Source: a virus. Taken from it: 39,520 bases of DNA. The first letter of the stretch is position 1. Each line of letters starts with the position of its first letter. Shown here piece by piece: positions 5,493 to 39,520 of this stretch. The stretch spans positions 1 to 39,520 of the IMG/VR virus record IMGVR_UViG_3300045988_112015; one strand, 5' to 3'. The position numbers and the translations under genes were made by a program. Below the pieces are notes generated by a model, which was not told where the DNA came from, made no database searches, and worked only from the letters and a program-made list of their open reading frames with translations.

Positions 5493-5956
5493 AGCGAATA
5501 CTCCCGATTGTTTTAAATTTAGTCCAGCAATATGGGACTAACGATCCCAAGGAATTATGTCAATGCATAGGGATTGATGTTATTCACATCAATATTCCTA
5601 TGGGGCCGCGAGGTGTATCACTTAAGATATTGGACGCGAGATATGTTTATCTGGATAACTGCTTGAGCAAAGACGAGAAAAACGTTACATTGGCTCACGA
5701 ATTAGGGCATGCCGTACTCAAACATTCGCAGCATCGAATTATAGATGTTGATATTGTATCCAAAAAAGATAACCCCGAACATGTTGCCAAAGAAGAATTA
5801 GAAGCCAATAAATTCGCCTTTCTTCTTATATCTCATACGTGTTTGCGTAATGATTATGATATGATCGATGGGATACGCAATGAAAAGCTCTTAACCATTG
5901 ATCGCGTACTAGAATTACTTGATGTATTTTCTAACACTGCATGCTATATTAATTAA
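5489..5956 (+). CDS. ImmA/IrrE-family zinc metallopeptidase (anti-repressor protease)
   Basis: Contains the HExxH motif in LAHELGHAVLKH. The TTG start overlaps the repressor stop, with AAGGTGA upstream. The pairing with an XRE repressor resembles ImmR/ImmA. Confidence 0.8.
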   Translation: MKRILPIVLNLVQQYGTNDPKELCQCIGIDVIHINIPMGPRGVSLKILDARYVYLDNCLSKDEKNVTLAHELGHAVLKHSQHRIIDVDIVSKKDNPEHVAKEELEANKFAFLLISHTCLRNDYDMIDGIRNEKLLTIDRVLELLDVFSNTACYIN

Positions 5957-6690: not shown

Positions 6691-6846
6691 TTCTAATAAC
6701 TAAAAATCCCGTCAGTACCGCTAATACTAACGGGAATGCAAGACATTTACTCACCCCGCATGGATTTGTAAGTGACCTGCAAGGTCATTATACCAAAATC
6801 CATATACATTTGTATACCCGGCCCCGCACGCCAGGAAGGATATATA

Positions 6847-12890: not shown

Positions 12891-15800
12891 TTGTTATCCC
12901 CCTTTTTATTTTTTCGTTTTTCCATATTTTTCCGTTCCTCTACCGTTTTATACCTCTTATCAAAAATGATTGAGGTCATCAGGTCCATAAGATTGCGGTC
13001 CGTATCAACTAACGAAAAGCGAACCAGTGTCCAGAATCCGTCCGTCAGTGTGTCGGAGAACCCGACATATCGATTACTTACGCGGCTTACGGCACGCCCG
13101 ATATCTGTCCAGTCTTTTCGGTCACTTGTAGCAGCTTCTACCGCATTAATCATTTCTTCAAATCCGGAGACGGCCAGCGGCGTAATGCCGTTTCCTTTGT
13201 ATCCTTCCAGCATGACGCTTACGGCTCCCTCTATGGCGTCGCGGGCAACCGGTATTCCCTGATCTGCGTTACGTATGGCCGTTAGGCCGAGTCGGCGCAG
13301 CATTTTATCCGGATCGTCCACTTCTCCCGCCACGGCGCTTCGGTACAGTGATTCAAATATCGTCGGCAATACGATCCAATACAGCGCGGCATTATATACG
13401 GCCATGCGGTTGCCGTTATCTTTCCAATTGTACCCGGCGGCAATAAGGGCGTTTAGCTGTGTATTACAATATGAGTAAAACGGGGTAAGTTGTCCGATAA
13501 GAGAGTTTTTACGCTGCACTTCTGCCTGGTCTTTGACCATTCCCGATCCATATACGGCCCGTACATTCGCATCCGCCGCGCTTACTGCGTTGCGCTCCAG
13601 TACATCTCTATTCAGTTCGCCCGCTTCCACCTGTTTTTGCATGGATTCATCATATGAGTGCTTCCATAGCGCCATTGACATCATAAGATCCGTTTCCGTG
13701 ATAAACCAGTACCCATACCGATTAACTGCATCTTTAACGCTTCTCGCCTTTTCTTTTGCTAGCCCCGTATTGGCTTGTACACTGATTTTCATATCTTGCT
13801 GGATGTCACGGTCCATGGTATTCATACGGGACCGCATCATGGGCGAATGTTCCATGACAAAGGCCCTGTTTGCGTTGTACGTATCGGTTCCTTTATAAAA
13901 GCCAAGCCCGAAATTAACCAGCGCTTTCACGGCTTGCGGCGCTCCTATTTTCCACATCATCGGGAAGATATTTAACGCATTTAGGGCCGCTGTTGTCGTA
14001 CGGAACATCATAACAGCGCCCGATGTATTCCGGCGCATCTGTTCCAGCATTTTACTTACGGTATCTTGTTTCTGTACATCCGTTTTCCAGCAGTCTTTCG
14101 CCCATTGTTTTATTTTTGCAAAGGTTTCTTTCCCGTATCTTTCTTCTACGGCCCGCTGTACTTCCGGATGATTGATCAGTTTATATACATCCGTTACCGC
14201 TTCACGCATGGCTATATGATGGATGGCTTCATTTACCGCCGCCGGCCATACGTCCAAGCGTAAATTCAGCTGCTGATTTTTTACTTCGGATACCCGTGAC
14301 TTGGTACTGCCCATGCCGATCGCCATAGTGGCATTACCGGACAACTGCTGCCTGATGATATCGTCGGCCTCAATGTCACTGCTACGGCTGCTTAATCTGC
14401 TGTCGTACTTAATAGGGTAGTATCCGCCCGTCAGTTTTCGGCCGTTAATCGTAAAAGACAATGCCCGGACTTTTCCCAGTCCTACCCCGTACAGATTTTC
14501 CTGCACTTTATTTCGTTCCGGCCAATACTGCCCGATCTGTTCCCAGATTTTCTCTATAAAATCCCAGTCTTTTTGTGTGAGCGCGCTCTCAAATATTTGC
14601 TGCACGTCGTATTCTTTTACAAGGTGGTAGTCGTGTTTTACGTCTTTATTGATGGTGGACAGTACACGCCGGCGCCCTTCCAGATTCCCCCAGTTTAGGG
14701 CCATACACATAACCTGTTCCCGTGTAAACCGTTCGGTAACGCCGACGGTATAGGCTTTTACGCTTCGCATGGTCTGCCATTCTTCCAAGCTGTACATGTT
14801 GTGTATCGCCGCAAACTCTTTGCAGGCTTTTTCTTTAAGGATGAGTTCTTTGTTTGATGCCTGGTTTATCGGCTCATACACCAATTGCATCCAGTCTTTC
14901 CCGAAGCGATTAAATATAGTTTCCAGTTTTGTCAATGATAATAGCGCATCGGACGCCCACTCTTTCGCCCTGCCGGTACTTGTCTTGTCGTTCTGCGCTT
15001 GCATCGCATTAAAGTCTTCAACCGGTTCAACGGTGTCAATTAAGCGCCTTGCCGCTTCTTCCATTCCTACCGACATGCCGTTGCTATCTGTCAATGTCGT
15101 TGCTTCGTATTCTCTGCGGGATACTTTATATATGACGTTCATGGCGGTTATCATGTCTTTAAACTGCGTCATCGGCATATTTTTGTAATCCTGTTTTTCG
15201 CTACTCATGACAAGCGCCCGGAGCCACGGGGCGACGATATCATCCGGTTTTGGTCCCGTACTTTCGTCCATTGCATAATCCGGTGACAGATCCCTGTAGA
15301 TGGATTCCCAGTTTATATCACCAGGCATTCCATCTTCTCCCAACGGTTTTATGCCGTCCTGGCTTCGTAGCCCGGTAACATACGCCAAATGCTGGATAAA
15401 GTAGCGGCTGTTGGCATTTAATTGCACGGGATCTTTGCGGCGACTAATGCGTTTTATCATTCCCAGCACGCCGTCCATCGGTTCATGCTGATCGTCCATA
15501 CGTCCGTTTTCGCCTTCCAGTTTTTTACGTACGTATTCCTGATTATCCTTGGCCGCCCGTGCCATGCAGTAGTATTTCAGGCTGTTGTTCTTAGCCAATA
15601 CAGCGTCTTTAAAGTTTCCCGACGCCATGAGTGCATCAGCCCGATGGCTTTCCGACTTTCCCTTTATTTCCCAGTGCCGCCACGTGGTAGCGTCGGCTAC
15701 CGTATACTGTTCCAGTTCTTCCTGTGCCGCTCTCAATGTCCGCATGTAATTCCCGTTCGTTGCGTCCCGCGCCGCATTTAACCCTTGCATAACTTCTTTC

Positions 15801-18800
15801 AGGGCCGCCTTTATGCTGTTAAGCTCCGCTTTTACATTCTGCTTCTGCAGCATTTTTGCTACAGATTGTCCTTTCTTCACATCTTCTTCCGATGCGACGT
15901 TTAATATCTGCTGCAGCCCTTTTGTCACTTCTTCTTCCGATTTTCCTTCCAGTTTATCCGTTTCCCGCATCGCCCGTACAGCTTCTGCGATATACCCGTT
16001 TATTTTCTTTCTCATGGCATACGCTTCCAGCTGTGCCAATCGCGCCTGTCCGCTCGTTGTGGCCAGTTCCGCATCAGCCGCCATACGTATATCTTCCGCC
16101 GTCGGCATCATATCTTCGTAAGCCTCACGCCGTTCTTCCATATACCGGTTTACCCGTTCTTCCAACGTTCCACCGGCTTTTTGCAATGCTTTTTCAAATT
16201 CCGCCGCATTTTCATACCCGTATGCTTTGAGGATATTTAACTTCTTATCATCTTGCGCGGAACGATATATAAGTTCCTGTTTATATATTTCGTTTTCTTC
16301 GGTCAGTTGTTTTTCATAATCAATACGTTCGGTTGCAAGACCACTTTCTTTTTGTGATTCCCACATGTCCTGCTGCGTCTGCATGATACCCGCCAACAGT
16401 TTTTCTTTTGCCCAGGCTTTTATTTTATCGTTCCATTCTTTTATCATCTCCCCTTCGCTGCCCGTGAGGTCCCCCGCAAATCCTTTACGGTCCCATGCGC
16501 TAAGTTCTCTTATTTTGGCCCAGTTTTCAATTTCATCGTCTGTAGCCAACATTCGGTCCATAACTCTTTTTACGTCTTCCGGCGGTTCTTTACCGAGGTT
16601 TTTTAAATCGCGATAAATCGATACAAGCCATGCTTTAAATTTCCTGAACGGGCTCTTAAGGGCTTCTGCCGGTGCCTTTCCTTCGGCTATATACCGCTCA
16701 AACCCTCTTGCAAAGCGTTCCTGTATCCATCGTTCTTCTGCTGCTTTAATAGCTACAACATCCCCCGATTTCCTTGCCGCTTCAATCTCTTGGATATATG
16801 CGCGGAATTCTTTTTCCCGTGCCGTTCCCACATAATCCGCCATATCTTCCGGCTTGTACGCCGCCCATTCCTGGATGGTGTTCCAGTCTTTCAGCAGCCG
16901 GTACGGTACGTTCTCATCCTGTACCATACGGCCCATTTCCGACAAATACATATGGGCCGCTTCATGGATAAATGAGGACTGATCCGCCGCATCAAATAAC
17001 CGGATAGCCCCCGTTGCCGATTCGTACGACGCTTTTATATCCTGATCGTATTTATTACGTATTTCAATCGCTTTGTCATCAAAGACCACATAACAGCGCC
17101 CTTCTTGCGTACCTTCATACGTAATTCCCTTAATTCCAAATTCATTTAACTTTAACGAGGCTTCCTTATCTCCGCCATATAAATCATACAGCGTTCCGTA
17201 TATACTTTGGCCGGTACTGTTTTTAAACATTCTTTTGGCGGTTTTTCGGGCCCCTTGTATGCCGACGGTTCCCACATCATCAATATCCCACAGTTGATCT
17301 TCGTCCATATTATCAATGAGCTTGTTTAATGCGTTTTTTACTTTTTTCGGCTGTTCGTCAAATGACTTCTGCTCATCCAGCAGCACATCCTCATCCGGGA
17401 TTTCCACTTCCAACAATCTTCCGCCTTTATGCCCTGTTCCTTCTCCCTGCTGTAAGATATCCACAGCTTTTTGTGCTTCGGCTATATATGCACCGCGGAA
17501 TTTTCCCTCTTTTAACTCTTTCTGCAAGGCACTAATCGCGGCGTCTTTTGTGCCGTGTGCTTCCAAGGCATCCAGGGCATACCCTACCGCTTCCCCATAT
17601 TTTGCGGTCTTTCCGTCTGTTTCCCAGTCTCCCGATTCACTAACGGTCCATATATCACCATTTAATTCAACAGCGCTTCCCTTACTGCCGAATGTGTCTT
17701 TATATGCTTCCGACACCTCTCTGTTTTGGGCAAAATACAATCCCCATCCATGCACTTGATTTCCTTCACCACTGCCTATGCCCGATAAATCAAACGCATT
17801 AAAATCATAAGGCGTCCCGTGCCATGCGCGTTGATAGTATCCCGGATATTGTTCTTTTAATTTGACAAGATTTTCTTCATTTGGTATATTAGATTCAAAA
17901 ATAAGACCAGCGATGGATTCATCGGGCATGGCGGAATATACCGTCTCCGATTTTAACCATTGTCTGGTCTTATTTTTGTTTACATACTCTAATTTTCCCT
18001 CTTTTATTTTATCGAAAAAATACTTATATCTCGGCTTTTTTTGTTCCCCCTTTTTCTTGGGTTCATACGTCGGCTCATACGCGGATATCATTAAATTGGC
18101 AATTTCACCAGTTTGACGAATTTTAGTATCCAGTTCCAACGGCACTATTACATTAGATCCTGTTTTCCCTGTAAGGTCCACAACTATAATTTTTCGTTTT
18201 TGTCCGCCTTTTCCGTTATATGTATCCAGTATCATCAGCGGATCTGCCAGCGCTCTCGGCAGCCGTTTTAAAAGTTCCGGGGATATTTCATCACTGTGCC
18301 TGTTTTTTAAAATTTTACCGAGTTCAAACAAGGATATTTTTATCGGCAGGACTTCTCCACCTACTAATTTCATAACCAACGGAGTTGTCATGACATCGAC
18401 GACTTTTTCTTTTAATTCATTGCTCATGAATTTGTCGATTGTCTTCATAAATGCTTGTTCGTCTCTTGTAAGCTTTTCTTCCGGCGTGATTGTTTGGAAA
18501 AAATTTCCGGTCCCTTGCCCCATGACAACCGGATGTGCCGTCATGAAGTCTTTCGCCGTATACAATGTATCGCCATATTCCTGTCGTATCTTCGCCCACG
18601 TTTCCGCCAGCCGGGCGTATATATAGGCGTTTTCTTTTGCGGCGGACTGCACGGCTTTCGGCCCCTGTTCCAACGTTTGTGCTACTTTTCGGTATACTTC
18701 CGCACCTTCTTTAGACAGCGATTTGCGCAGGGCATAATCGCTGTTATTCAATTCCGCAATTTTGTCTTTCAGTCCTTCTACCGCTTCATATTTTTCTTTC

Positions 18801-21163
18801 GCCGCCTGCACCGCTTCATTCCACTCTTCCAATCTTTCCGGAGTGGTTGCGGCCAGCTCTTTATATTCGTTTTTATACGCTACGTCCAGCATTTCCGCTT
18901 TTGTCGCTTTGCGGCCCAGTTCTTTATACATATCACTGTACCACGGTTCATTTTCCGACACACGGATTCCCCTGCCGCTTCCCGTATTGTTGTGTCCGTC
19001 TATATCCGCCGTGATAATGCTTACGCCTTCGGGCTGATAATTCCAGTAGTAATTAAAGTTTATCGCGTCTTCATAATTCTTCCGGGCTTCTTTTACGGAT
19101 TCTTTATATCCTTCTTCCAGATCATACGGATTGCGGCTGATGATATCCGCTGCCGCTTCTTGTACCTGCGGATCGGCATCGGCAAAATGATCTTTTAATA
19201 TTTCGCCTGTAAGGGCGTCTTTTTTATTGGCTGCCAACTCGGCTATTTCTTTTCTCATGTTTTCCAGCCGCGCGGCCCGATCTTCCAGTGCTGCCCGATG
19301 GATACCTTTTTGTGTCATTGTTGTGGCCCGCATCAAGGTATCCGTATCCATGCTTTCATCCGCAAGCTGCGTAAACACGCCTGTCGGGATAACGATATCC
19401 GTTCCTTTTTCAATCGCCGTGTCCACCTGTTCCGCCGTTACCATACCTTTATTTACAATGTCGGTCAGGACGGCTACGCCTTTATCCGTTCTTGCCAGTT
19501 CCTGGGCATCCACGTACAATTCTTCCATGCCTGATTTTTCCGCCTGGGCCTGGATGACATTACGATATACTTCCGGATTGGTTTGCGCCAATTTGTTTGT
19601 TTTTTTATCTTCTATCAGCCTTGTAATGGCATCCTGTTCCACCTGGCGCTGGTATAATTGTCGCCAGTTTTCCACTCTCGCACCGGCAACGGCTTTGGTG
19701 GTGTGATATTCTCCTATCATGCGCGGGCCCACTCCAACCGCACCCATACCGATAACAGCCGGGACGGCCTGTACCATGGCGTCTATCGCATTTTTAAGTA
19801 CTTCGTCCGGGCTGTGTATTTCACTTTCGCTTCGGTTAATATACGCTTCCGCATTATCGGCCAGATCGTTTACAATCTGCTGTGACCCTTCTTCCGCAAG
19901 TTCCGCCGCACTGCCTCTTGCCCACTGTTTACCGCCCGATACCAATGCCATCCGCATCAATGCGGACTCTCCCGCATCCACAATGGAGCGCTGTGCCGCC
20001 GCGCTATTTAATATGGCTTTAGCCGTATTCTTCCCCCATGCGGCGGTAATAGGCTTTGTCGCTACATGCAGCAATCCTACTTCAATCGCTGCATTTAACG
20101 CGCCTGTAGCTGTACTGTCTATCAGTGCATTCTTTCTTGTGTAAGTTTTGTTTCCTGCGGCGTCTTTACGATTCATGAGTTCCCAATACCGGGACGCCGC
20201 ACTTTGTTTCCATACTTCTTCGCCGTATCCGACTCTAAATCCCAAAGACGCACCTTGGGCCGCTCCTGCTAAAATGGTTCCTATCGCAACAGGCGTGCCA
20301 GCTCCTAATGTAGCCCCTTCAATTCCCGCCGCCAGTGCCACGGACGCCGTTGCCCCGACAACCGCCCCTTGGGCCGCTCTTTTTGATGCCCGTAATGCTT
20401 GATTGCCCATTACCGTTAATTGCCGGATTGTATCATAGACAATTTTTCCCATTTGCGTATCCGGCCGGTCCTGTTCCTGATATTCCTGCAATCTTCTGCT
20501 TATGGTATCGATTTCCGGACGCACGGATTCCATATCTTCCCCGTTATATACTCTCATTTGCGCGTCGTACAGTTTTACCATATCCGATCCGGAATTAAAC
20601 GCATTTACGGCTGTTTGCCAATCCGCTACGGCTTTATTTTTGCTTTCCTTTAAATTATCAAAGATGACCTGCGTTGCCGTCATATCCGCATAATTTTTGA
20701 GGGCAATTGAGGCCCCCACGGGATCCCTTTGCCGCATTTCCACCAGTTCCGGATACAAGCTGTCAAGGTTCGCCGCACTAAATCTTTGCCCGCGCATGTA
20801 CGCCCAATTGATAGACTCTTTATTTATTTCCCGTACCCGTTCCAGTGATTCCGGATTGTCCAGTAAAAACTGCGGAGATATCCCCACTCGTTCGCCAAGT
20901 CGTTTGGCTTCCGACATGGTTCCTTCGTCGCCGCTTATCATATTGCGATAAATTTCTCCCGCGCTGTCTACAGCACGTTCAATCAACGTGCCGCCGTAAT
21001 CATTTTCGGCACGCCATTTTTTACCTTCATCGTCGGTATGTTCAAGTTCCAGACTCCATCGTTGTTCCGGTTCACCAGTTGCCTGACGATCCGTTACAAT
21101 ATACCCTTTTGCGGTTTGTTCCGCCAAGGCTTTTAATTCTTTTTCTCTTTCTTCTGATAGCAT
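12887..21163 (-). CDS. Giant (2758 aa) internal virion / ejection protein of the 'polyvalent protein' type
   Basis: Occupies the gp16-like position after the gp14- and gp15-like genes. Features:
- Gly/Ala-rich hydrophobic segments at aa ~262-310 and 465-480.
- ...NRHSDEISPELLKRLPRALADPLMIL module at aa ~925-1035.
- WHGTPYDFNAFD...GWGLYFA at aa 1114-1144.
- HEAAH at aa 1400-1404. Confidence 0.75.
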   Translation of the reverse strand: MLSEEREKELKALAEQTAKGYIVTDRQATGEPEQRWSLELEHTDDEGKKWRAENDYGGTLIERAVDSAGEIYRNMISGDEGTMSEAKRLGERVGISPQFLLDNPESLERVREINKESINWAYMRGQRFSAANLDSLYPELVEMRQRDPVGASIALKNYADMTATQVIFDNLKESKNKAVADWQTAVNAFNSGSDMVKLYDAQMRVYNGEDMESVRPEIDTISRRLQEYQEQDRPDTQMGKIVYDTIRQLTVMGNQALRASKRAAQGAVVGATASVALAAGIEGATLGAGTPVAIGTILAGAAQGASLGFRVGYGEEVWKQSAASRYWELMNRKDAAGNKTYTRKNALIDSTATGALNAAIEVGLLHVATKPITAAWGKNTAKAILNSAAAQRSIVDAGESALMRMALVSGGKQWARGSAAELAEEGSQQIVNDLADNAEAYINRSESEIHSPDEVLKNAIDAMVQAVPAVIGMGAVGVGPRMIGEYHTTKAVAGARVENWRQLYQRQVEQDAITRLIEDKKTNKLAQTNPEVYRNVIQAQAEKSGMEELYVDAQELARTDKGVAVLTDIVNKGMVTAEQVDTAIEKGTDIVIPTGVFTQLADESMDTDTLMRATTMTQKGIHRAALEDRAARLENMRKEIAELAANKKDALTGEILKDHFADADPQVQEAAADIISRNPYDLEEGYKESVKEARKNYEDAINFNYYWNYQPEGVSIITADIDGHNNTGSGRGIRVSENEPWYSDMYKELGRKATKAEMLDVAYKNEYKELAATTPERLEEWNEAVQAAKEKYEAVEGLKDKIAELNNSDYALRKSLSKEGAEVYRKVAQTLEQGPKAVQSAAKENAYIYARLAETWAKIRQEYGDTLYTAKDFMTAHPVVMGQGTGNFFQTITPEEKLTRDEQAFMKTIDKFMSNELKEKVVDVMTTPLVMKLVGGEVLPIKISLFELGKILKNRHSDEISPELLKRLPRALADPLMILDTYNGKGGQKRKIIVVDLTGKTGSNVIVPLELDTKIRQTGEIANLMISAYEPTYEPKKKGEQKKPRYKYFFDKIKEGKLEYVNKNKTRQWLKSETVYSAMPDESIAGLIFESNIPNEENLVKLKEQYPGYYQRAWHGTPYDFNAFDLSGIGSGEGNQVHGWGLYFAQNREVSEAYKDTFGSKGSAVELNGDIWTVSESGDWETDGKTAKYGEAVGYALDALEAHGTKDAAISALQKELKEGKFRGAYIAEAQKAVDILQQGEGTGHKGGRLLEVEIPDEDVLLDEQKSFDEQPKKVKNALNKLIDNMDEDQLWDIDDVGTVGIQGARKTAKRMFKNSTGQSIYGTLYDLYGGDKEASLKLNEFGIKGITYEGTQEGRCYVVFDDKAIEIRNKYDQDIKASYESATGAIRLFDAADQSSFIHEAAHMYLSEMGRMVQDENVPYRLLKDWNTIQEWAAYKPEDMADYVGTAREKEFRAYIQEIEAARKSGDVVAIKAAEERWIQERFARGFERYIAEGKAPAEALKSPFRKFKAWLVSIYRDLKNLGKEPPEDVKRVMDRMLATDDEIENWAKIRELSAWDRKGFAGDLTGSEGEMIKEWNDKIKAWAKEKLLAGIMQTQQDMWESQKESGLATERIDYEKQLTEENEIYKQELIYRSAQDDKKLNILKAYGYENAAEFEKALQKAGGTLEERVNRYMEERREAYEDMMPTAEDIRMAADAELATTSGQARLAQLEAYAMRKKINGYIAEAVRAMRETDKLEGKSEEEVTKGLQQILNVASEEDVKKGQSVAKMLQKQNVKAELNSIKAALKEVMQGLNAARDATNGNYMRTLRAAQEELEQYTVADATTWRHWEIKGKSESHRADALMASGNFKDAVLAKNNSLKYYCMARAAKDNQEYVRKKLEGENGRMDDQHEPMDGVLGMIKRISRRKDPVQLNANSRYFIQHLAYVTGLRSQDGIKPLGEDGMPGDINWESIYRDLSPDYAMDESTGPKPDDIVAPWLRALVMSSEKQDYKNMPMTQFKDMITAMNVIYKVSRREYEATTLTDSNGMSVGMEEAARRLIDTVEPVEDFNAMQAQNDKTSTGRAKEWASDALLSLTKLETIFNRFGKDWMQLVYEPINQASNKELILKEKACKEFAAIHNMYSLEEWQTMRSVKAYTVGVTERFTREQVMCMALNWGNLEGRRRVLSTINKDVKHDYHLVKEYDVQQIFESALTQKDWDFIEKIWEQIGQYWPERNKVQENLYGVGLGKVRALSFTINGRKLTGGYYPIKYDSRLSSRSSDIEADDIIRQQLSGNATMAIGMGSTKSRVSEVKNQQLNLRLDVWPAAVNEAIHHIAMREAVTDVYKLINHPEVQRAVEERYGKETFAKIKQWAKDCWKTDVQKQDTVSKMLEQMRRNTSGAVMMFRTTTAALNALNIFPMMWKIGAPQAVKALVNFGLGFYKGTDTYNANRAFVMEHSPMMRSRMNTMDRDIQQDMKISVQANTGLAKEKARSVKDAVNRYGYWFITETDLMMSMALWKHSYDESMQKQVEAGELNRDVLERNAVSAADANVRAVYGSGMVKDQAEVQRKNSLIGQLTPFYSYCNTQLNALIAAGYNWKDNGNRMAVYNAALYWIVLPTIFESLYRSAVAGEVDDPDKMLRRLGLTAIRNADQGIPVARDAIEGAVSVMLEGYKGNGITPLAVSGFEEMINAVEAATSDRKDWTDIGRAVSRVSNRYVGFSDTLTDGFWTLVRFSLVDTDRNLMDLMTSIIFDKRYKTVEERKNMEKRKNKKGDNK

Positions 21164-32828: not shown

Positions 32829-34280
32829 TCATCTCCTTTTCTGATATGGGTTGTATTTCGTCTGTGCTTTTTGCCGTTGCGTCTGTCCTCGTATGACCGG
32901 CAGCGCAAAGGTAAGTGCCAGCGCGTCCGCTTCATTCGGTGACGGCAGGCCGCGCATTTTCATGTGGTCTTTGCTTTCCAACATAATTTCCCCTTTGTCG
33001 TTTACCGACGCTTCCGGGCCGATCAGGTCGTCATAGATAGTTTCTCCGTCCGGCAGCACACCGCCGTCCTGTAACCACGCTTTTACTTTGCCCCACATTT
33101 CGGCCCTCTTATTTGCAAATCCTTTGGTTCCGGATTTTCCTGCAAACGACACCAGTTTCCAGCGGCGGCCCATGGTCTGCCCAAAGGAATATATGCCGGT
33201 TCCGTAGCCCTGGTCGATAAATACCGCATCAGCGTGGTACTCATCTTCAAACCCCGCGATTATCGCCGCCATATGTCCGTCGTTGTCGTTTTTTGCATAC
33301 GTCCCCAGCCTCTTGCTGTATAGCCCTTGTCGCAAGTAAATAACAAAGTCATCGTCTCCTGTCCATGCCGGATCCACGCCGATGATAACCGGTGCAAAGT
33401 TGTATTGCGCCGGCCGAAGTGTACGCCTTTGCGCCTCTTCTACTATATCCGTGCCGATGTACTGGCTGTCCGATGCTGACGGAAAGTCCCCGCGTACGCG
33501 CACTTTGAAAAAGTCGCTGTCCTCGCCGTACTGTGCCTGCCATTCCTGTATCTGTCCTTTGTTTGCGATAGATACGCTACGGCTATCAATTTTTACAGTA
33601 TCCCAGTATTTACGATACTTTGTAAAACATGCATGGAATCTCCCGATATTACGCGTCGGATTGCCGTAGCAGCACCATATGATCTCCGTGTTTTTATCTG
33701 TCAAGGCCCCTTCCGTGACGTCCCATATGCGGTCGTCTACAGCCGACGCCTCGTCAAATACGATTAAAATCCTTTTCCCTTGATTGTGCAGGCCCGCGAA
33801 GGCTTCCGTGTTGGTGACGGACCATGGTATAGCGTCTATGCGCCACGTGCGTTCATGCTCCGCCTCGATTGAGAAAATCGCTGTCGCTGTATACGCAAAG
33901 AGTTCTTTCCCTATAAATTTACGGTGCCATTTTGCCAGCTCCGCCCATGTCTTGGTGCGTAGCTGCGCTTCCGTGTTGGCCGTGACGACGCCGCGCGTAT
34001 CCGGATGCGTTGAGATAGCCCACAAGATAATCCATGCCACCAAACTACTCTTTCCAATTCCATGTCCCGACGCAACTGCCTGGCGGATGACGGTATTCGG
34101 TGTTTCAAGCCCCTTTGCGATTTTTTCAAGCTGGGCTATCTGCCACGGCTGCGGTGCTTGTCCTTTTAATTCCGTATCGTTATCCCAATCAAACGCAAAG
34201 TATACCCACGCCACAGGATCGTGTGTAAGTTGTCCCAAGCAATCCATCAGCTCATACGCTTCGTCATGCGTCATTGGCAT
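32829..34280 (-). CDS. terL: Terminase large subunit
   Basis: Walker A VASGHGIGKS and Walker B ILIVFDEAS are followed by a C-terminal nuclease-like region. Length is 483 aa. Confidence 0.9.
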   Translation of the reverse strand: MPMTHDEAYELMDCLGQLTHDPVAWVYFAFDWDNDTELKGQAPQPWQIAQLEKIAKGLETPNTVIRQAVASGHGIGKSSLVAWIILWAISTHPDTRGVVTANTEAQLRTKTWAELAKWHRKFIGKELFAYTATAIFSIEAEHERTWRIDAIPWSVTNTEAFAGLHNQGKRILIVFDEASAVDDRIWDVTEGALTDKNTEIIWCCYGNPTRNIGRFHACFTKYRKYWDTVKIDSRSVSIANKGQIQEWQAQYGEDSDFFKVRVRGDFPSASDSQYIGTDIVEEAQRRTLRPAQYNFAPVIIGVDPAWTGDDDFVIYLRQGLYSKRLGTYAKNDNDGHMAAIIAGFEDEYHADAVFIDQGYGTGIYSFGQTMGRRWKLVSFAGKSGTKGFANKRAEMWGKVKAWLQDGGVLPDGETIYDDLIGPEASVNDKGEIMLESKDHMKMRGLPSPNEADALALTFALPVIRGQTQRQKAQTKYNPYQKRR

Positions 34281-34890
34281 TTCCTTCTTTCCTCTTTAAA
34301 GCATCCTGAAGCCTATCCGACAGTTTCAGTGTCGCATCCACTGTCACGCTACCCGTGAGTTCCGTCTGCTGCTTCTGTTTCCAGTCGTCCGGCGCAAGGT
34401 TTGTCAGGATAAAGGTCGCCGCTTTCGTGTCCGGCGGGATGATAATGCATTCCGTCTCCACTTTTTTCGTCACCTTTTTTCCTGTGACCCTGCCGTCTTT
34501 TACGATATCCATCGTCGTCGTCTCTTCTTTTTTCGGGATTACTTTTTCAATCCCAACGGCGCGGTGAAACAGCGCATCTTCCACTTCCGTTACGCAATAA
34601 TCTTTGCCGATGGAAAGGGCCTCCGAAAACTCCGGATGTTTTTTAATCCATTCATAAAACGTTGACTCTGATATGCCGATGTATGCGGCAATGGCTTCAT
34701 TATGCCATCCTTTACGACATAAGCCTGCAATGATTTTCAGGTTTTGATCCGTCTTAAATTTTTTCCATGTTGTTGCACGCCGCCTTATATTAATGTTCTT
34801 TTTGCGCGGGCTATTTGCGCGTGTATCTGTTTTTTTTAAAAAAATCTTCTCACGCTTAATCGGTTCGCCCCACACCTTGTTTTTACTCAT
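34264..34890 (-). CDS. terS: Terminase small subunit
   Basis: HTH-like NEAIAAYIGISESTFYEWIKKHPEFSEAL...ALFHRAVG. It overlaps the TerL start. The ATG at 34890 has AGGAGC upstream. Confidence 0.7.
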   Translation of the reverse strand: MSKNKVWGEPIKREKIFLKKTDTRANSPRKKNINIRRRATTWKKFKTDQNLKIIAGLCRKGWHNEAIAAYIGISESTFYEWIKKHPEFSEALSIGKDYCVTEVEDALFHRAVGIEKVIPKKEETTTMDIVKDGRVTGKKVTKKVETECIIIPPDTKAATFILTNLAPDDWKQKQQTELTGSVTVDATLKLSDRLQDALKRKEGNANDA

Positions 34891-34900
34891 TTTTTTGCTC

Positions 34901-35083
34901 CTATTTAAATACCCGTCTGCGGCTGGTATGCCGGACGGGCTCATGATTTAAGTCTGATTGATATGTTTTTCGCCACTTTCGTACAAAGCTTTTGCACTTT
35001 TCATGCGATATGATAAGAGGTTCTTTTGTGCAAACCTCTGCATGGTTGTATTCGCAGCGGCGATTATCGCAGTATATCATCTC
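34901..35083 (-). CDS. Small Cys-rich protein, first gene of the late operon
   Basis: MIYCDNRRCEYNHAEVCTKEPLIISHEKCKSF... read from the ATG at 35083, with GAGG upstream. Confidence 0.45.
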   Translation of the reverse strand, partial: EMIYCDNRRCEYNHAEVCTKEPLIISHEKCKSFVRKWRKTYQSDLNHEPVRHTSRRRVFK

Positions 35084-35302
35084 TACCTCTTTTACGGCAT
35101 AAAAAAAGACGTCCGCATCACGCAAGGCGCCTTTTTGTTTTATTTCACGCTATCATTTTATCACGTATCAAAGTATCATTTAGTATCCTCTTTTATTTTT
35201 TAGCAGGAAATTTTTATTTATTTTTTCTATAACCCCATAATTCCGCATGGTTAAGCCATTTGCAAATATTAAAAATATTTTAAAAAACTTTTTATTTTTC
35301 TC

Positions 35303-35331
35303 TTGACTTGTCACGCATTGCGTGATATACT
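35303..35331 (+). promoter_or_regulatory. Near-consensus promoter with a 7-1-7 palindromic operator filling the spacer
   Basis: TTGACT (35303-35308), a 17-nt spacer, then TATACT (35326-35331) with TG at the extended -10 position. The spacer contains TCACGCA-T-TGCGTGA (35311-35325). Confidence 0.75.
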
Positions 35332-35372
35332 TTACTCGACAATAAGGGCAACGGCCCAAAAGGAGGAAAAAA

Positions 35373-35630
35373 ATGAAAAAGAAAAAAATAAACATCCGTG
35401 TATTAAACGCAGTAAAAAATTTCTCTGACCCGTGGCATCGGGTCAAGGCCTACAACCCCGTAGGCCGGTACTTCGAGCGGGTCACCACAAACGGTTGCCC
35501 CGAAGAAGTACAAAACGGGGGTGTCTATGGCCTCGGCGCGCCGAAGAACGCCGAGGTGCTGGCGTGGTTCCGGTCTTACGGAACCGCAAGGCGGCGCCAG
35601 CTGCTCCGGGCTATGCACATAAGTGCATAG
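35373..35630 (+). CDS. 85-aa ORF with a strong RBS, spanning a GC-rich hairpin-dense segment (coding status uncertain)
   Basis: AAGGAGG lies 7 nt upstream of the ATG. The N-terminus (MKKKKINIRVLNAVKNF) is AT-rich and the rest is GC-rich. By hand count over codons 35427-35627, GC is 44/67 at position 1, 34/67 at position 2 and 50/67 at position 3. That is a coding-like pattern. Confidence 0.4.
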   Translation: MKKKKINIRVLNAVKNFSDPWHRVKAYNPVGRYFERVTTNGCPEEVQNGGVYGLGAPKNAEVLAWFRSYGTARRRQLLRAMHISA

Positions 35631-35646
35631 CTCTAAAAAAAAGTTG

Positions 35647-35673
35647 AATTGCCGCAAAAGCGGCGAAAGGAGA
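35647..35673 (+). repeat. 27-nt hairpin-plus-SD junction element, copy 1
   Basis: AATTGCCGCAAAAGCGGCGAAAGGAGA, located 10 nt upstream of the ATG at 35683. Confidence 0.7.
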
Positions 35674-35682
35674 TAGTTAAAA

Positions 35683-36366
35683 ATGGAATTGAAAAAATAC
35701 AACGCTGGTAATAAAATTACCAGCTCAACCGAATACCTGTTTAGCCGCGGATGGAGTATCTGCGACGACGGCTTTATCTATATTACTGATTTAAGAGACC
35801 AGTACGGCTGGTCTTTCAAAATTAAATACAGCGGCCAGTTAAAAGCCGCGTTTTTAAACGCGCACGGAACGCAAGCCGAACTTGACGTCCTGGATGACAC
35901 CATAGGCAATCCTGCGACATACGGATTGTCCGGAGAAGATGTCATCGCTTCTCCGTCTGCGCGGTTTAACCCGTGCGACTTTGAAGAACTTGAGGTCGGC
36001 GACCTCAAGGCCATCCGCATCGACGGCGTTGAGAACTGGATCCGTGTCAAAGAAATACCGAGTCGGGTTTTCTTTGACACGGAAACATGCGACTACGTCG
36101 ATAGCCACTTTGACTATATCGACGTGTACGACGTAGTCGAATTTAATGACTACGATATTGACGGCGAGGAATATAAACTCGCCATCGCCTCTGACGCACA
36201 ATTCGAGGGGCCGCGCGGAGAGGAAAAAATCGCCGCCCAAGTTGTCGACAAGGACGGCACTGAGTACTTATTGTACTGGGACGTCGCCGACGACTGGAAA
36301 GATGACGACGGGGACATGTCCCACGCCGCCGACTGGGACAACCCAGTTGATATCACGAAAGCGTGA
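35683..36366 (+). CDS. Acidic hypothetical protein (227 aa)
   Basis: D/E-rich, for example DVADDWKDDDGDMSHAADWDNPVD at the C-terminus. Good RBS. Confidence 0.7.
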   Translation: MELKKYNAGNKITSSTEYLFSRGWSICDDGFIYITDLRDQYGWSFKIKYSGQLKAAFLNAHGTQAELDVLDDTIGNPATYGLSGEDVIASPSARFNPCDFEELEVGDLKAIRIDGVENWIRVKEIPSRVFFDTETCDYVDSHFDYIDVYDVVEFNDYDIDGEEYKLAIASDAQFEGPRGEEKIAAQVVDKDGTEYLLYWDVADDWKDDDGDMSHAADWDNPVDITKA

Positions 36367-36370
36367 TATC

Positions 36371-36565
36371 ATGTCTGAAAAAATTAAAGAAGCCCGCGTT
36401 GCTGCGGGTCTCACACAAAAAGAAGTGTGCGAACTTCTCGGTATCCCACCGCGCACACTGCAAGATTGGGAAGCCGGGCGGAGAAATCCGCCGGCTTGGG
36501 CGGAATCCCTTATTTTAGAAAAAATTAATTGCCGCGGAAGCGGCGAAAGGAGAAAAGAAAAATGA
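36371..36565 (+). CDS. Small HTH (XRE-like) DNA-binding protein, Aca-like candidate autoregulator
   Basis: MSEKIKEARVAAGLTQKEVCELLGIPPRTLQDWEAGRRNPPAWAESLILEKI... Length is 64 aa. Confidence 0.75.
   Translation: MSEKIKEARVAAGLTQKEVCELLGIPPRTLQDWEAGRRNPPAWAESLILEKINCRGSGERRKEK
36527..36553 (+). repeat. 27-nt hairpin-plus-SD junction element, copy 2
   Basis: AATTGCCGCGGAAGCGGCGAAAGGAGA, 25/27 identical to copy 1. It lies 9 nt upstream of the ATG at 36562. Confidence 0.7.
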
Positions 36566-36568
36566 CTT

Positions 36569-36868
36569 TTGAAGAATTCAAACAGACAAAACAGTACACG
36601 ACTATTCAAGAAACAGTTTCAACTTAATCGCTACGGGGAAGGCAACTACACTGTGCAAGTCGGATTTGATGATCGCGGATGGGCAGATATGTATAAAGGA
36701 AATCTGTACGGTGCAATACTTGAGTTCGACGCACAGCTAGAAAGCAACTGCGATGATGACGATCTCGCTATGTGTATCGATTTAACCGTCGATACAAAAA
36801 CCGGGCAGCACTCGCTGCTCCGCGTTGACGAGAACTGCAGTATCGTATTCGACGATACAAACAGCTAA
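36569..36868 (+). CDS. Acidic hypothetical ORF with unresolved start (99 codons open, no convincing initiation site)
   Basis: The well-placed ATG at 36562 (ATGA overlap, SD present) opens a different frame that stops after 21 codons. The long frame is the same frame as the upstream HTH gene. Confidence 0.4.
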   Translation: MKNSNRQNSTRLFKKQFQLNRYGEGNYTVQVGFDDRGWADMYKGNLYGAILEFDAQLESNCDDDDLAMCIDLTVDTKTGQHSLLRVDENCSIVFDDTNS

Positions 36869-36871
36869 CAC

Positions 36872-36901
36872 ATAAGCCCTCATTACGAGGGCTTATTTTT
36901 A
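36872..36901 (+). terminator. Rho-independent terminator closing the plus-strand island
   Basis: ATAAGCCCTC-ATTAC-GAGGGCTTAT stem followed by TTTTT. Confidence 0.8.
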
Positions 36902-36948
36902 TGCTAAAAGGCGGCCATAATGACCGCCTCGTCCTACGAATATTTTTT

Positions 36949-37404
36949 TCATGCATCTAGTTTTATTTTTTGTTCCTTTGCGATTTCATTTAATTTTCTC
37001 ACAGCAATTCGTCTTATTCTTAACACGTGTCCTCTCGACATGTGTGTATGTTTTGCGACCTGCTCCCAACTCATAAAATCTAAATAGTAATATCTCAACA
37101 CCGCTTCCTGCATATCATCGCAAAGCAAGCTTATAAATGCCTTTCCCGCTTCTCTTTGCTCGTACAGGATTTTCATTTCCTTGTTTATTTTTTCCGCATA
37201 TCTCTCTACTGCTATAGCAATATCCGCCAGATCTTTTTTTTTACCGCCTTTTGTTATTGGCTTATTGTAGTTTACGCCACTTAATAACAGCCCGTTTTCT
37301 TCCAAGTATTTTGCGTATTTCAATTCTTCAATTTTCCAATATTGTTTTCTGATTCTCGCTAAGTATCTTTGGGCAAACTCATCTCTCTGCATATCAGTCC
37401 TCAT
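36949..37404 (-). CDS. Sigma-70 region-4-like transcriptional regulator (ArpU/RinA/DUF1492-type late activator candidate)
   Basis: The C-terminus LRYYYLDFMSWEQVAKHTHMSRGHVLRIRRIAVRKL is a region-4 HTH pattern. It is the last gene before the late operon. Confidence 0.55.
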   Translation of the reverse strand: MRTDMQRDEFAQRYLARIRKQYWKIEELKYAKYLEENGLLLSGVNYNKPITKGGKKKDLADIAIAVERYAEKINKEMKILYEQREAGKAFISLLCDDMQEAVLRYYYLDFMSWEQVAKHTHMSRGHVLRIRRIAVRKLNEIAKEQKIKLDA

Positions 37405-37923
37405 TTATCGTTTTTCCTGACTCCATCTTAGCTTAATATTTTCTTTTTCAGCCCGTAGCTTCAAGATATCCATATATCCTCTCATGGCCTTTAATTGCTC
37501 ACGTAGGATATTTATTGGGCCTGTAAGTTCAAAATCCAGCATTCCACAATCATATCGCGCAATCGTTGTTTCCAGCTTTTCATATCTTATTTTCAATTGC
37601 CAATATTCAGCCTTAAAGCGTTTTTTGTAATTCTTGCTTTTCATAAGTTTTGCCGTGTCTTTTAATCTTATTTCTTTAATCTCGCATTGTTTCTTCATTT
37701 TAATCATCCTTTCAGTTGTAACCAAAGGCATCCTTTTCAGTGTTTCGATTTCTTCTGATAGCCGCTTTTTTTCCTGCAACGGTTTACACAACTGACGCAT
37801 CCGCTCTATAAACATTCTGCGCGCGTTTGATTCGGCTTTTACCGCTTCATATGCCCCGTATATCAAAACAACCGTTAATACGCCGCTTCCAAACAGCAAT
37901 ATTCCTACAAACATTCCAGGCAT
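37405..37923 (-). CDS. Membrane-anchored coiled-coil hypothetical protein
   Basis: N-terminal TM segment FVGILLFGSGVLTVVLIYGAY. The C-terminal AEYWQLKIRYEKLETTI...LREQLKAMRGYMDILKLR motif is common in small phage proteins. Confidence 0.55.
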   Translation of the reverse strand: MPGMFVGILLFGSGVLTVVLIYGAYEAVKAESNARRMFIERMRQLCKPLQEKKRLSEEIETLKRMPLVTTERMIKMKKQCEIKEIRLKDTAKLMKSKNYKKRFKAEYWQLKIRYEKLETTIARYDCGMLDFELTGPINILREQLKAMRGYMDILKLRAEKENIKLRWSQEKR

Positions 37924-37955
37924 TATTCTTCACACTCCCGTTATTCTCTGTTTGT

Positions 37956-38351
37956 TCAGCTTTCCTCTTCCATCAGCTCCTCAATGCTATACCGCTTCGG
38001 ATTCGTCATAAAAAACTTCGTATTACGATACTCCGGATGTGAGCTTTCCCAATTCTCATACGCTTCTGTCAGAACTTTTTCCAGTTCGTCCATATGCTCT
38101 CCTTTTATATTATTGAGATAATCATCATCCTCGAAACCCTCGTTATATGCATCGTCCGCAATATCTTCCAAGACTCTTCCCGTATTTACTTGGGGTTCAA
38201 ATCTGCGTACCTTCCCTACAAAAATAAATTCATATTCGTTCTCATGCTCCCAAAGTTCATAAGCTTCCAAAGCTTCGTTGATAGCTTCTTTTTCCGTATC
38301 AAATATCCCGTAGCACGTTTCATTATCAAAACTATATGCGTATTCTGCCAT
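37956..38351 (-). CDS. Highly acidic hypothetical protein (131 aa)
   Basis: Very D/E-rich, for example DIADDAYNEGFEDDDY and EELMEEES. Confidence 0.6.
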   Translation of the reverse strand: MAEYAYSFDNETCYGIFDTEKEAINEALEAYELWEHENEYEFIFVGKVRRFEPQVNTGRVLEDIADDAYNEGFEDDDYLNNIKGEHMDELEKVLTEAYENWESSHPEYRNTKFFMTNPKRYSIEELMEEES

Positions 38352-38369
38352 TCTTTTTTACTCCTTTTT

Positions 38370-39173
38370 TTACGTAATACTTTCATCATCCAGCACGCCG
38401 AAGATATTAATAGGCTCTATGTCTTCGTGCGGAATTCCCTTTCCATTTATCCAAAACGCCATTTGGTCATCAACGGTTTTAAATAGCACTTTTTTTCCTT
38501 CGCGCTTCCGTTTTTTCATCGCCAGCTCTGCGCCGCCCCGCCATTGATACTTGTAAATATGCGGCCATCTCGCAATATCCTTGAGCTTTTTTTCTCGGCT
38601 AATAAATGGGCAGCATACACATCCAATGCGAGTAAATCCCTCATCATACAGCCAACAATAGGGTACTCTGTATGTTTTGATGTACTCCCAAACCTCTTGA
38701 GTGCTCCACTCAATAATCGGATGTATAAACCTCTTGCCGTTGGGTTGCCTGCACGGCTCAATTAATTTGCGAGTTGCGCGTCTTGCGCTTTCTGCATGCC
38801 TGATCCCTGTAACAACATATCTTCCGGCGCCTCCGCGCTCTTTATATTCTGCGCAGCAATATCTTACTATCCGCGTCGGCAGTATCCCCTTTTTTTCAAT
38901 CAGTTTTCTCATGCTTATTCGCGGTTTTTCTATTGTGACTTCCGGATGATTTTGTTTAACAAATCTCACAACTTCCGGCGGATCTACCGTCGTCAGATTA
39001 AAATGCGCGTCAAATTTTACGCCGGACTTTTTTACGAGATCCAAGACGACACAACTGTCTTTTCCACCTGAAAAGGCCACATAATAACCTTCCACCGGTT
39101 CATGCAGTTTTAGTCGTCTGATTGCCAAATCAACTTTATCGATTGTTCCCCAAAGCGTCTGTTCTTTTAACAT
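38370..39173 (-). CDS. PAPS-reductase-family ATP pyrophosphatase-like protein with Fe-S-type cysteines
   Basis: Contains the PP-loop AFSGGKDS, a Cys pair RYCCAEY and a later cluster GCVCCP, i.e. the CC...CxxC arrangement seen in APS reductase and DndC-type proteins. Confidence 0.8.
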   Translation of the reverse strand: MLKEQTLWGTIDKVDLAIRRLKLHEPVEGYYVAFSGGKDSCVVLDLVKKSGVKFDAHFNLTTVDPPEVVRFVKQNHPEVTIEKPRISMRKLIEKKGILPTRIVRYCCAEYKERGGAGRYVVTGIRHAESARRATRKLIEPCRQPNGKRFIHPIIEWSTQEVWEYIKTYRVPYCWLYDEGFTRIGCVCCPFISREKKLKDIARWPHIYKYQWRGGAELAMKKRKREGKKVLFKTVDDQMAFWINGKGIPHEDIEPINIFGVLDDESIT

Positions 39174-39183
39174 TTCTCATACC

Positions 39184-39520
39184 TCAAAATAGCGACATTT
39201 CCTGCGTGGCGACTGGATTTATATAAACGCATTCCGTCGCCGTCTTTGCGAAATTTGTTTGCGTTTTTATGAGCTTCTTTTCCCATCCTATGAGCAACTT
39301 GTTATACATCTCATTCTCATATGCACTGATGATGCACGGCCCTACATGTTGTTTGCATATATTCAGCAATTTTTCATGCTCTGCAGATGTGGCAAATTCA
39401 TGCGCATAGTGTAAGTTAGTCCGCACGCTCCTCAAGTACGGTGGATCCGCATACAACAGCGTGCCTCTGCGGTTGTATAAAGGGATGAGTTCCAACGCGT
39501 CCATGCACTCTATTTGCGCC
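39184..39520 (-). CDS. dam: DNA adenine methyltransferase, D12/Dam class, C-terminal part (continuation of 516..1)
   Basis: ...LLYADPPYLRSVRTNLHYAHEF... carries the DPPY catalytic motif. The frame is open to the window end and continuous with 1..516 through the overlap. Confidence 0.9.
   Translation of the reverse strand, partial: AQIECMDALELIPLYNRRGTLLYADPPYLRSVRTNLHYAHEFATSAEHEKLLNICKQHVGPCIISAYENEMYNKLLIGWEKKLIKTQTNFAKTATECVYINPVATQEMSLF
39466..39520. repeat. Second copy of the 55-bp terminal overlap
   Basis: Identical to 1..55 by direct comparison. Confidence 0.9.

Follow-up and report, generated by a model that had tools for sequence, protein, structure and literature searches.

A region at about 35246-36933 of a temperate phage of the gut or mouth was analyzed in IMG/VR virus record IMGVR_UViG_3300045988_112015; the stretch examined is positions 1 to 39,520 of that record (39,520 nucleotides [nt], hereafter the window). 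The region holds a promoter with an inverted repeat, several small open reading frames (ORFs) and a gene for a small helix-turn-helix (HTH) protein. It is read here, with a modest degree of confidence, as a self-contained, horizontally exchanged accessory operon (moron) that works like an anti-CRISPR (Acr)/Aca locus and whose cargo most likely acts against host defence. The comparison of related loci gives good support to the first part, that the cassette works like an acr-aca operon; that it is an Acr/Aca operon in the strict sense, and that its acidic proteins are DNA mimics, may be proposed by inference. To the known kind of autorepressed anti-defence or moron cassettes it adds a new HTH lineage, new cargo families and a number of unusual RNA features.

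A conserved regulatory unit with exchangeable cargo

The features of the island are as follows (SD, Shine-Dalgarno sequence; 5'UTR, 5' untranslated region; aa, amino acids; pI, isoelectric point).

35246..35258, no strand assigned: quasi-palindrome ATGGTTAAGCCAT, left cassette boundary, where similarity between backbones starts
35264..35302, plus strand: AT-rich, UP-element-like tract AAAAATATTTTAAAAAACTTTTTATTTTTCTC upstream of the -35
35303..35331, plus strand: sigma-70/SigA-type promoter, TTGACT, 17 nt, TGnTATACT
35311..35325, no strand assigned: operator, perfect 7-1-7 palindrome TCACGCATTGCGTGA
35346..35366, plus strand: 5'UTR hairpin GGGC-AACG-GCCC, immediately followed by the SD (GGAGG) of orf85
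35373..35630, plus strand: orf85, 85 aa, basic (pI 10.6) cargo protein of no known family
35649..35672, plus strand: intercistronic hairpin-plus-SD module UUGCCGC-AAAA-GCGGCGA, AAGGAG, before orf227
35683..36366, plus strand: orf227, 227 aa, acidic three-module protein (N-terminal part 1-70, middle 75-150, C-terminal domain 152-227)
36349..36370, plus strand: 9-bp junction hairpin GAUAUCACG-AAAG-CGUGAUAUC, the right arm of which holds the orf227 stop codon (36364-36366)
36371..36565, plus strand: XRE-family HTH, 64 aa, Pfam HTH_3 (PF01381), predicted autorepressor
36529..36552, plus strand: second intercistronic hairpin-plus-SD module UUGCCGC-GGAA-GCGGCGA, AAGGAG, which also encodes the C-terminal tail of the HTH
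36562..36868, plus strand: frameshifted remnant of a 103-aa acidic gene, with a 5-nt deletion near 36620
36872..36901, plus strand: intrinsic terminator of the island, 10-bp stem with five GC pairs, then a T-run
36909..36933, minus strand: second hairpin AGGCGG...CCGCCT, right cassette boundary

Relatives of the cassette were collected by scanning for a 25-nt promoter/operator pattern, which gave 10 further loci (three in IMG/VR, one in GTDB genomes and six in JGI metagenomes), and by protein look-ups, which brought the total to about 20 metagenomic loci. The GTDB locus lies in a Lachnospiraceae metagenome-assembled genome (MAG), and one relative found by protein look-up comes from a human oral metagenome. 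GenBank phages gave no match to the island by blastn or to orf227 by tblastn. All known copies of the cassette come from metagenomes and MAGs. A search of IMG/VR with orf227 returned no relatives.

The same operator and an orthologous HTH drive at least five cargo sets.

Type A (window, L005, L026): orf85, with or without orf75, orf227 and orf103
Type B (L001-4, L015/16, L025, L034/35): an acidic gene of 66-75 aa (orf67/75), then orf227, plus extra genes that vary
Type C (L017/18/21/22): orf98, orf97 or orf73, and orf196; beside methylase and lysis genes
Type D (L019/23/24): orf170 and a NUMOD3-like protein
Type E (L020): two tiny hydrophobic membrane peptides, then an integrase

The 60 nt upstream (AT tract, -35, palindrome and -10) are almost identical in the contigs that carry orf227 homologues, despite an unrelated first gene. 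Two unrelated backbones carry the cassette: that of L001 and L002 has a P22-type portal and a Terminase_2 small subunit, and that of the window and L005 has a T7-type Head-tail_con portal. It also occurs at other genome positions, beside lysis genes or an integrase, and its presence and content vary among otherwise collinear phages. An Aca-like architecture had been proposed in an earlier, sequence-only reading of the window; this part of that reading is borne out, since the same promoter/operator and HTH recur across backbones with at least five cargo sets.

The promoter consists of a -35 TTGACT at 35303-35308, a 17-nt spacer and a -10 TATACT at 35326-35331, with a TG at 35323-35324. The sequence-only reading had called it near-consensus, and it does agree with the consensus at 10 of 12 positions, which ties for best among nine promoter-like sites in a scan of 34000-38500. 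It is kept in the approximately 20 loci, and L017, L018, L020 and L022 have a perfect TATAAT as the -10. The AT-rich tract upstream is almost unchanged in all type A and B loci, type C has a related AAAAATATTTTAAAAAA tract, and the tract may act as an UP element. The palindrome between the hexamers was said to fill the whole spacer; it is indeed a perfect 7-1-7 repeat but covers only 15 of the 17 bases. In relatives the operator is longer, ATCACGC-AWT-GCGTGAT, and its variation is confined to the central base (A/T). Its half-site centers are about 10 bp apart, a spacing that suits a dimer bound to one face of the helix, as with XRE repressors. Palindromes with 7-bp arms are not rare by themselves, 30 being present in the window versus 12.9 in shuffled sequences. 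The promoter/operator is beyond chance, as judged from its near identity across about 20 independent loci with differing cargo.

In L002, L003 and L005 a longer palindrome (e.g. L002 5669-5705) of the form CTCTTGACTTATCACGCA-T-TGCGTGATAAGTCAAGAG, 18-1-18, is found, with an inverted second TTGACT in place of a good -10 (TAAGTC). The strength or direction of the promoter in these three loci may differ from that in the window.

TCACGC half-sites toward the late operon had also been pointed out as possible operator copies. The word itself is not enriched (nine and eight copies on the two strands versus about 10 expected per strand), and the half-sites were rejected as additional operators, with the sole exception of the copy at 35117. 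There, ATCACGCAAGGCG (35117-35129) matches the left part of the operator at 12 of 13 positions and is conserved in every relative with the window-type backbone. The loop of a terminator-like hairpin (35105-35135) holds it, and this hairpin has a minus-strand T-run and stands at the head of the late operon. Neither the P22-portal-type backbone nor cassette types C-E have the copy, and the hairpin is unexceptional in folding (z -0.44). Either co-regulation of this site or a footprint left by recombination could account for the copy.

The HTH lies on the promoter strand between promoter and terminator. Its match to Pfam HTH_3 covers residues 5-41 (E 1e-11; 45.1 bits versus a cut-off of 23). Orthologues are 57-66 aa long and 43-77% identical, and their invariant residues (P26, R28, T29, W33, E34, R38 and P41) fall in the second half of the HTH_3 match. 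An orthologous HTH is present downstream of the operator in every fetched locus that reaches far enough downstream, and the operator is co-conserved with the invariant stretch (residues 26-41) across loci. This co-conservation is an indirect hint that the 64-aa HTH binds the operator palindrome. The HTH gene has no SD of its own, and its stop codon overlaps the next ATG as ATGA at 36562-36565.

Homologues of the HTH in L006-L013 (40-61% identity) occur without this operator and are therefore uninformative on co-variation of protein and operator. In L007 (4001-4720) an HTH homologue (61% identical) and a very acidic C-terminal region form one 239-aa ORF, which is located between lysis genes and an integrase and has no TCACGC operator; in L006 the HTH and the acidic part are separate ORFs. 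The L007 ORF is a further link between the HTH and acidic cargo.

The first three genes of the island are as the sequence-only reading described them, an 85-aa ORF, a very acidic 227-aa protein and a 64-aa XRE HTH. The fourth is not. What had been taken for a further acidic ORF is the remnant of a 103-aa gene that is intact in L005; relative to L005 and L002 the window has lost 5 nt, leaving a 21-aa ORF (36562-36627) followed by an out-of-frame remainder. The same gene has been deleted independently and more extensively in L001 and L002, making three lineages in all. orf85 has relatives in only seven protein clusters among 5.8 billion, and in these relatives it is the first or the last gene of the island.

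Hairpins in the messenger and palindromes at the cassette boundaries

The island is closed by a strong terminator, as had been noted from the sequence. Its 10-bp stem and T-run (36872-36896) are kept in relatives with the loop inverted. The second hairpin, at 36909-36933, likely terminates the minus-strand early arm, judging by its sequence and position. When the window-type backbone is compared with the P22-portal-type backbone, similarity runs from about 35246 to just past about 36933 and has sharp edges; the mobile unit therefore brings its own promoter, repressor and bidirectional terminators. At the left boundary the center of the motif is flipped in L001 (ATGGCTTAACCAT).

Three palindromes are inverted at their centers between lineages (window versus L001/L005). 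They are the left boundary at 35246-35258 (TTAAG/CTTAA), the operator at 35318 (T/A) and the terminator loop at 36880-36886 (CATTACG/CGTAATG). These flipped centers suggest template-switch or hairpin-mediated mutation at the DNA level.

Small GC hairpins placed directly before SD sequences recur along the messenger, with three hairpin-SD modules in the 1.6-kb island versus one in the remaining window on both strands. The place of the 5'UTR hairpin is taken in relatives by GCCGC-NNAA-GCGGC. The 35649 module forms direct repeat D1 with a copy at 36519-36583. In relatives the stems of the modules vary with pairing kept (GCCGG/CCGGC, GCCGU/ACGGC, GGCCG/CGGCC).

The junction between orf227 and the HTH is of a different kind. 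The HTH AUG begins one base past the junction hairpin, which folds with a z of -4.0. In an alignment of seven sequences, pairing holds in 95% of cells, with both bases exchanged in two pairs (AU/GC/CG) and a G-U formed in one; 9 of 500 shuffles scored as high. The pattern supports an RNA hairpin that would enforce termination-reinitiation coupling of the two genes. Since the HTH has no ribosome-binding site of its own and its AUG lies one base after the stop-codon hairpin, it would be made only by ribosomes that terminate on orf227. The invariant core of the junction stem, AUCACG/CGUGAU, equals the operator half-site ATCACG, with a rough, post-hoc chance probability of about 4e-3. Binding of the HTH to this RNA hairpin is a testable possibility, because Aca1 and Aca2 bind RNA hairpins in a DNA-like manner (PMC13551039, PMC9410906, PMC6765145).

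Taken together, these features would allow the following sequence of events. The promoter, which is strong, of housekeeping-sigma type and preceded by an AT-rich tract, would fire once the DNA is available and give a burst of cargo. The short polycistronic mRNA would present each cistron behind a small GC hairpin set against its SD, the HTH excepted, as it has no SD. The cargo, in the window basic orf85, acidic three-module orf227 and the decaying 103-aa gene, is interchangeable. The HTH, as the penultimate gene, would be made in fixed proportion through its coupling to orf227. As it accumulated, the HTH dimer would occupy the 15-17-bp palindrome between the -35 and the -10 and turn the promoter off, and the convergent terminators would insulate the cassette from the flanking early and late operons.

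Structure is not limited to the intercistronic spaces. The island contains 13 of the window's 30 perfect 7-bp-arm palindromes and has a mean folding z of -2.97 versus -0.51 in the flanks. The relatives have values of -2.9 (L026, type A), -1.2 (type B) and near flank level (types C-E), so that a highly structured mRNA in all cassette types was rejected; values near -2.9 are seen in type A only. Within the coding sequence, orf85 (35400-35630) and orf227 (36000-36120) are dense in perfect hairpins, with z down to -7.4. RNAalifold predicts 51 pairs in orf85, 10 of which have compensatory changes. Several of the orf85 hairpins are kept by compensatory changes that alter amino acids, and one stem survives a Ser TCT-to-AGC switch plus R-to-Y and G-to-K replacements. 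The last hairpin of orf85, CUAUGCAC-AUAA-GUGCAUAG, includes the orf85 stop codon, as the junction hairpin does that of orf227. A role for orf85 as a purely non-coding structured RNA was ruled out by its reading frame, which is intact in all nine aligned sequences with the third codon positions the most variable (34/27/55 variable sites by codon position). Stabilization of the mRNA and DNA-level correction of quasi-palindromes are both possible explanations of the structured island; the flipped centers of three palindromes between lineages speak for the latter. An Rfam scan of 34900-37000 gave only two sub-threshold chance matches, and no tRNA or tmRNA was found.

The acidic protein orf227 and likeness to known operons

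orf227 has a pI of 4.12 and a net charge of -30 (50 D+E versus 20 K+R). Only six close homologues were found among 5.8 billion protein clusters. An exhaustive HMMER search reveals that the protein is modular, as a 161-aa protein covers residues 4-153 and many small proteins cover only 152-227. Giant repeat proteins from the same search (P0007, P0011, P0017) were judged to be driven by repeats or composition (Ig-like and other repeats) and were not used. In L005 orf227 is split into modules, and in L032/L036 only 39 aa of it are left as an in-frame stub, beside an intact HTH junction.

The C-terminal domain (C domain) is the best candidate for an inhibitor. A profile of it collects at least 153 proteins, every one hypothetical and without a Pfam model, with the signature LTQDAY...AVD.DGNEY.V.WD...DW...ACDWDNP. 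The net charge of the domain has a median of -13.5 over about 75 residues and is below -5 in 79 of 80 members. Many members carry an N-terminal ribbon-helix-helix-like (RHH) or HTH segment as a fusion. Accessory regions house their genes: some follow lysis cassettes, on the opposite strand, and one is in an early cluster of small genes beside NAMPT and PRPP-synthetase-like (Pribosyltran_N) genes. A 28-residue match of the CV39L lectin to the profile was treated as spurious. A first AlphaFold run with seven close homologues was unusable (pLDDT, the predicted local distance difference test score, 48.7). The run was repeated with an 80-sequence alignment, and the C domain is modeled as a small beta-rich fold with pLDDT 86-96. 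Foldseek comparison of this orf227 model with BFVD returned only uncharacterised phage proteins, and comparison with the PDB gave no match at E <= 1e-3.

Several known systems resemble the cassette. Operons of the acr-aca type have, like the window, a strong promoter whose -35/-10 region is overlapped by an inverted repeat, small cargo genes of no known family followed by a small HTH in the operon, and an RNA hairpin in the 5'UTR; like the cassette, they have one regulator/operator that travels with different cargo between mobile elements. The hairpins that Aca1 and Aca2 bind are in the 5'UTR (PMC13551039, PMC9410906, PMC6765145). Unlike these operons, the window has an HTH for which comparison with the Aca proteins in the PDB indicates no named Aca family, and no cargo gene that is a known Acr. 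Its HTH is without an SD and would be coupled through a stop-codon hairpin, and its hairpin-SD modules recur before internal cistrons, beyond the 5'UTR.

A second likeness is to the self-regulating bifunctional Acrs, AcrIIA1 and AcrIIA13-15, in which an N-terminal HTH is joined to an acidic, DNA-mimicking C-terminal domain (PMC10901769, PMC7104187); in AcrIIA15 the HTH part is an autorepressor (PMC10901769). The common element is an acidic, inhibitor-like domain tied to a DNA-binding autorepressor domain. The tie would be translational coupling in the window and is gene fusion to RHH/HTH segments in relatives of the C domain. The window differs in having no sequence or fold similarity to these proteins and in placing the two functions on separate polypeptides.

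Phage morons in the Hendrix/Juhala sense, units with their own promoter and terminator set among core phage genes, are another likeness: the window cassette has both elements and separates the early-arm terminator from the late operon. Unlike morons, the cassette has its own repressor, a conserved operator, several genes and cassette-like internal junctions. C-protein operons of restriction-modification systems and toxin-antitoxin (TA) operons with XRE antitoxins are similar, through weak matches, in that a small XRE HTH autoregulates via a promoter palindrome. The window operon, however, encodes neither a restriction enzyme nor a methyltransferase or toxin, and the cargo of the cassette is variable.

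Phage context, competing explanations and significance

The neighbouring genes bear on how the cassette is read.

5127-5956: HTH repressor with M78 peptidase
6772-8439: serine recombinase
34264-34944: terS, in the late operon, preceded by a small Cys-rich ORF
36949-37404, minus strand: DUF1492 late regulator, last gene of the early arm
37405-37923, minus strand: 172-aa protein with a PF21825 (Sequestin) domain (E 2.6e-16)
37956-38351, minus strand: acidic 131-aa protein, PHROG 1672, function not assigned, between the PAPS-reductase and Sequestin-domain genes
38370-39173, minus strand: PAPS-reductase-domain protein, early arm, adjoining the D12 methyltransferase gene
39184-39504, minus strand: D12 N6-adenine methyltransferase, early arm

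A dUTPase is also found among the lysogeny and early genes. The island stands between the early-arm terminator hairpin and the late-operon leader. The 37405-37923 protein has a hydrophobic/coiled N-terminal part and a C-terminal PF21825 domain. Sequestin (PF21825) has been shown experimentally to be an anti-Thoeris family that sponges the 3'cADPR signal (bioRxiv 10.1101/2025.07.12.664507), so a known anti-defence family is encoded two genes from the island. By its position, the 131-aa acidic protein is another anti-defence candidate.

In L005, L014 and L032 a C5 DNA methylase takes the place of the PAPS reductase, and the position looks like a variable slot for DNA modification (anti-restriction). 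Five spaced TATCA/TATCC repeats lie at 35143-35195, between the island and the late operon, and are kept in L005, L026 and L034; they may bind the DUF1492 late activator (36949-37404). A single 2758-aa ORF on the minus strand (12887-21163) occupies part of the structural region.

An anti-defence role for the cargo is considered most likely because the cassette behaves like an Aca cassette and the acidic C domain is fused to DNA-binding domains, in parallel with AcrIIA15, and because C-domain genes lie in accessory regions and the island has Sequestin, PAPS-reductase and methyltransferase genes as neighbours. This role is reached by inference, because the cargo matches no known family and the HTH could be placed in no named Aca family by comparison with the Aca proteins in the PDB. 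A number of results weigh against it. The cargo proteins of the window and its relatives have no match in Pfam, NCBIfam or PADLOC; by PHROGs the window cargo has no match, and among the relatives a few cargo proteins are placed in function-unknown families or weakly match proteins of homing-endonuclease type. The PDB sequences, which include many Acr, Aca, Ocr and ArdA entries, were all searched with profiles and gave nothing relevant for the cargo. Compared with Ocr and ArdA, orf227 has no Pfam match and no PDB fold match at E <= 1e-3, a comparison that can be judged for the C domain alone, since the N-terminal and middle parts are modeled with low confidence and fold comparison is uninformative there. 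By these searches, neither the sequence nor the fold of any cargo protein is like that of an Acr, an anti-restriction protein or another protein known to act against defences, and the link to known Acr, Ocr or ArdA families that the sequence-only reading had envisaged finds no backing in Pfam, the PDB or Foldseek. The best PDB matches of the HTH are generic XRE proteins. Aca10 (7XI5; PMC9410881) is matched at E 0.0029, more weakly than several unrelated XRE proteins, and among the PDB-listed Aca proteins compared, Aca1 and Aca2 were not matched at E <= 1. Promoter strength is also not uniform among the loci, because L002, L003 and L005 combine a poor -10 with the 18-1-18 palindrome. Lastly, lysogenic-conversion morons would be an equally good fit for cargo set E, with its membrane peptides next to an integrase, and for the post-lysis positions. 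To our knowledge no Aca family has been described for Lachnospiraceae, the predicted host, and a literature look-up found none either.

A serious rival, though a rather unlikely one, keeps the regulatory cassette but takes the cargo for a lysogenic-conversion or superinfection-exclusion moron, which the prophage would express to the lysogen's benefit, shutting out other phages or changing the envelope, for instance, and not to counter host defence in the course of infection. The phage is temperate, as the serine recombinase and the repressor with M78 peptidase indicate, and the island is an independent promoter/terminator unit oriented against the flanking operons. In relatives the cassette follows lysis genes or adjoins an integrase, both of them locations typical of morons; the two tiny hydrophobic peptides of set E fit as well, and the L020 variant looks more like a generic moron. 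Negative autoregulation would give steady, low expression, apt for a gene expressed from the prophage. Against this reading, neither orf227 nor orf85 shows a signal peptide, a membrane segment or surface features; like known inhibitors, the cargo is small, acidic and cytoplasmic; the C domain, in being fused to DNA-binding domains, resembles the self-regulating Acrs (PMC10901769); and the neighbours include anti-defence genes. An elaboration of the favored Acr/Aca-like reading is rather improbable. It holds that the HTH exerts a so far undescribed dual control, on DNA at the promoter palindrome and on RNA at its own start-codon hairpin, that the hairpin-SD modules, together with the conserved coding-region hairpins maintained by compensatory changes, are plug-in insulators of translation or stability through which any cargo could be exchanged, and that the ACDWDNP domain is a widespread anti-defence family of nucleic-acid mimics with more than 150 members. 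Its RNA site, compared with those of Aca1 and Aca2, would be an internal cistron junction and not the 5'UTR.

Two further explanations fit poorly because the same HTH/operator serve unrelated cargo elsewhere and persist without orf227. It is highly improbable that orf227 and the HTH are a TA or abortive-infection pair in HigBA-like order with the palindrome as the antitoxin operator. The order of effector then HTH, the tight coupling and the autoregulatory palindrome follow type II TA logic, and the HTH has weak matches to MqsA, HipB and HigA-type antitoxin models, but orf227 is very acidic, and neither it nor any other window cargo protein matches a toxin or defence family. The 57-66-aa HTH is moreover a DNA-binding domain alone, with no neutralising extension, and it and the operator also serve almost no cargo (L020) and persist with a 39-aa orf227. 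The least probable of the explanations considered is that the HTH regulates phage development, as a Cro-like protein or a modulator of late genes; its real target would then be the late operon, via 35117-35129, and the island would belong to the core circuitry. This would account for the conserved 12/13 copy in a hairpin at the late-operon head of window-type backbones and for the location of the island exactly between the DUF1492 late activator and terS. That site is, however, only three-quarters of a palindrome in an unexceptional hairpin (z -0.44), and it is missing from the P22-portal-type backbone and types C-E, which carry both HTH and operator at other genome positions.

If the HTH is an Aca-type repressor, the 25-nt promoter/operator would be a probe for uncharacterised accessory genes in phages of the Lachnospiraceae, which are abundant bacteria of the human gut and mouth. 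The pattern has already brought in about ten unannotated cargo families. Searches led by regulatory sequence have worked before, both in archaeal viruses (PMC11065993) and with Aca1-12 (PMC13551039). The layout of the cassette makes it a good, if unproven, candidate source of new anti-defence genes. The C domain of orf227 is worth targeting, as it represents a family of more than 150 members that has no Pfam model and no solved structure and is often fused to DNA-binding segments. The hairpin-SD modules, the stop-codon hairpin and the compensatory changes within coding sequence may explain how cargo is exchanged without retuning of expression. Should the cargo not be anti-defence, the locus would still illustrate well how an expression cassette can be both portable and self-limiting.

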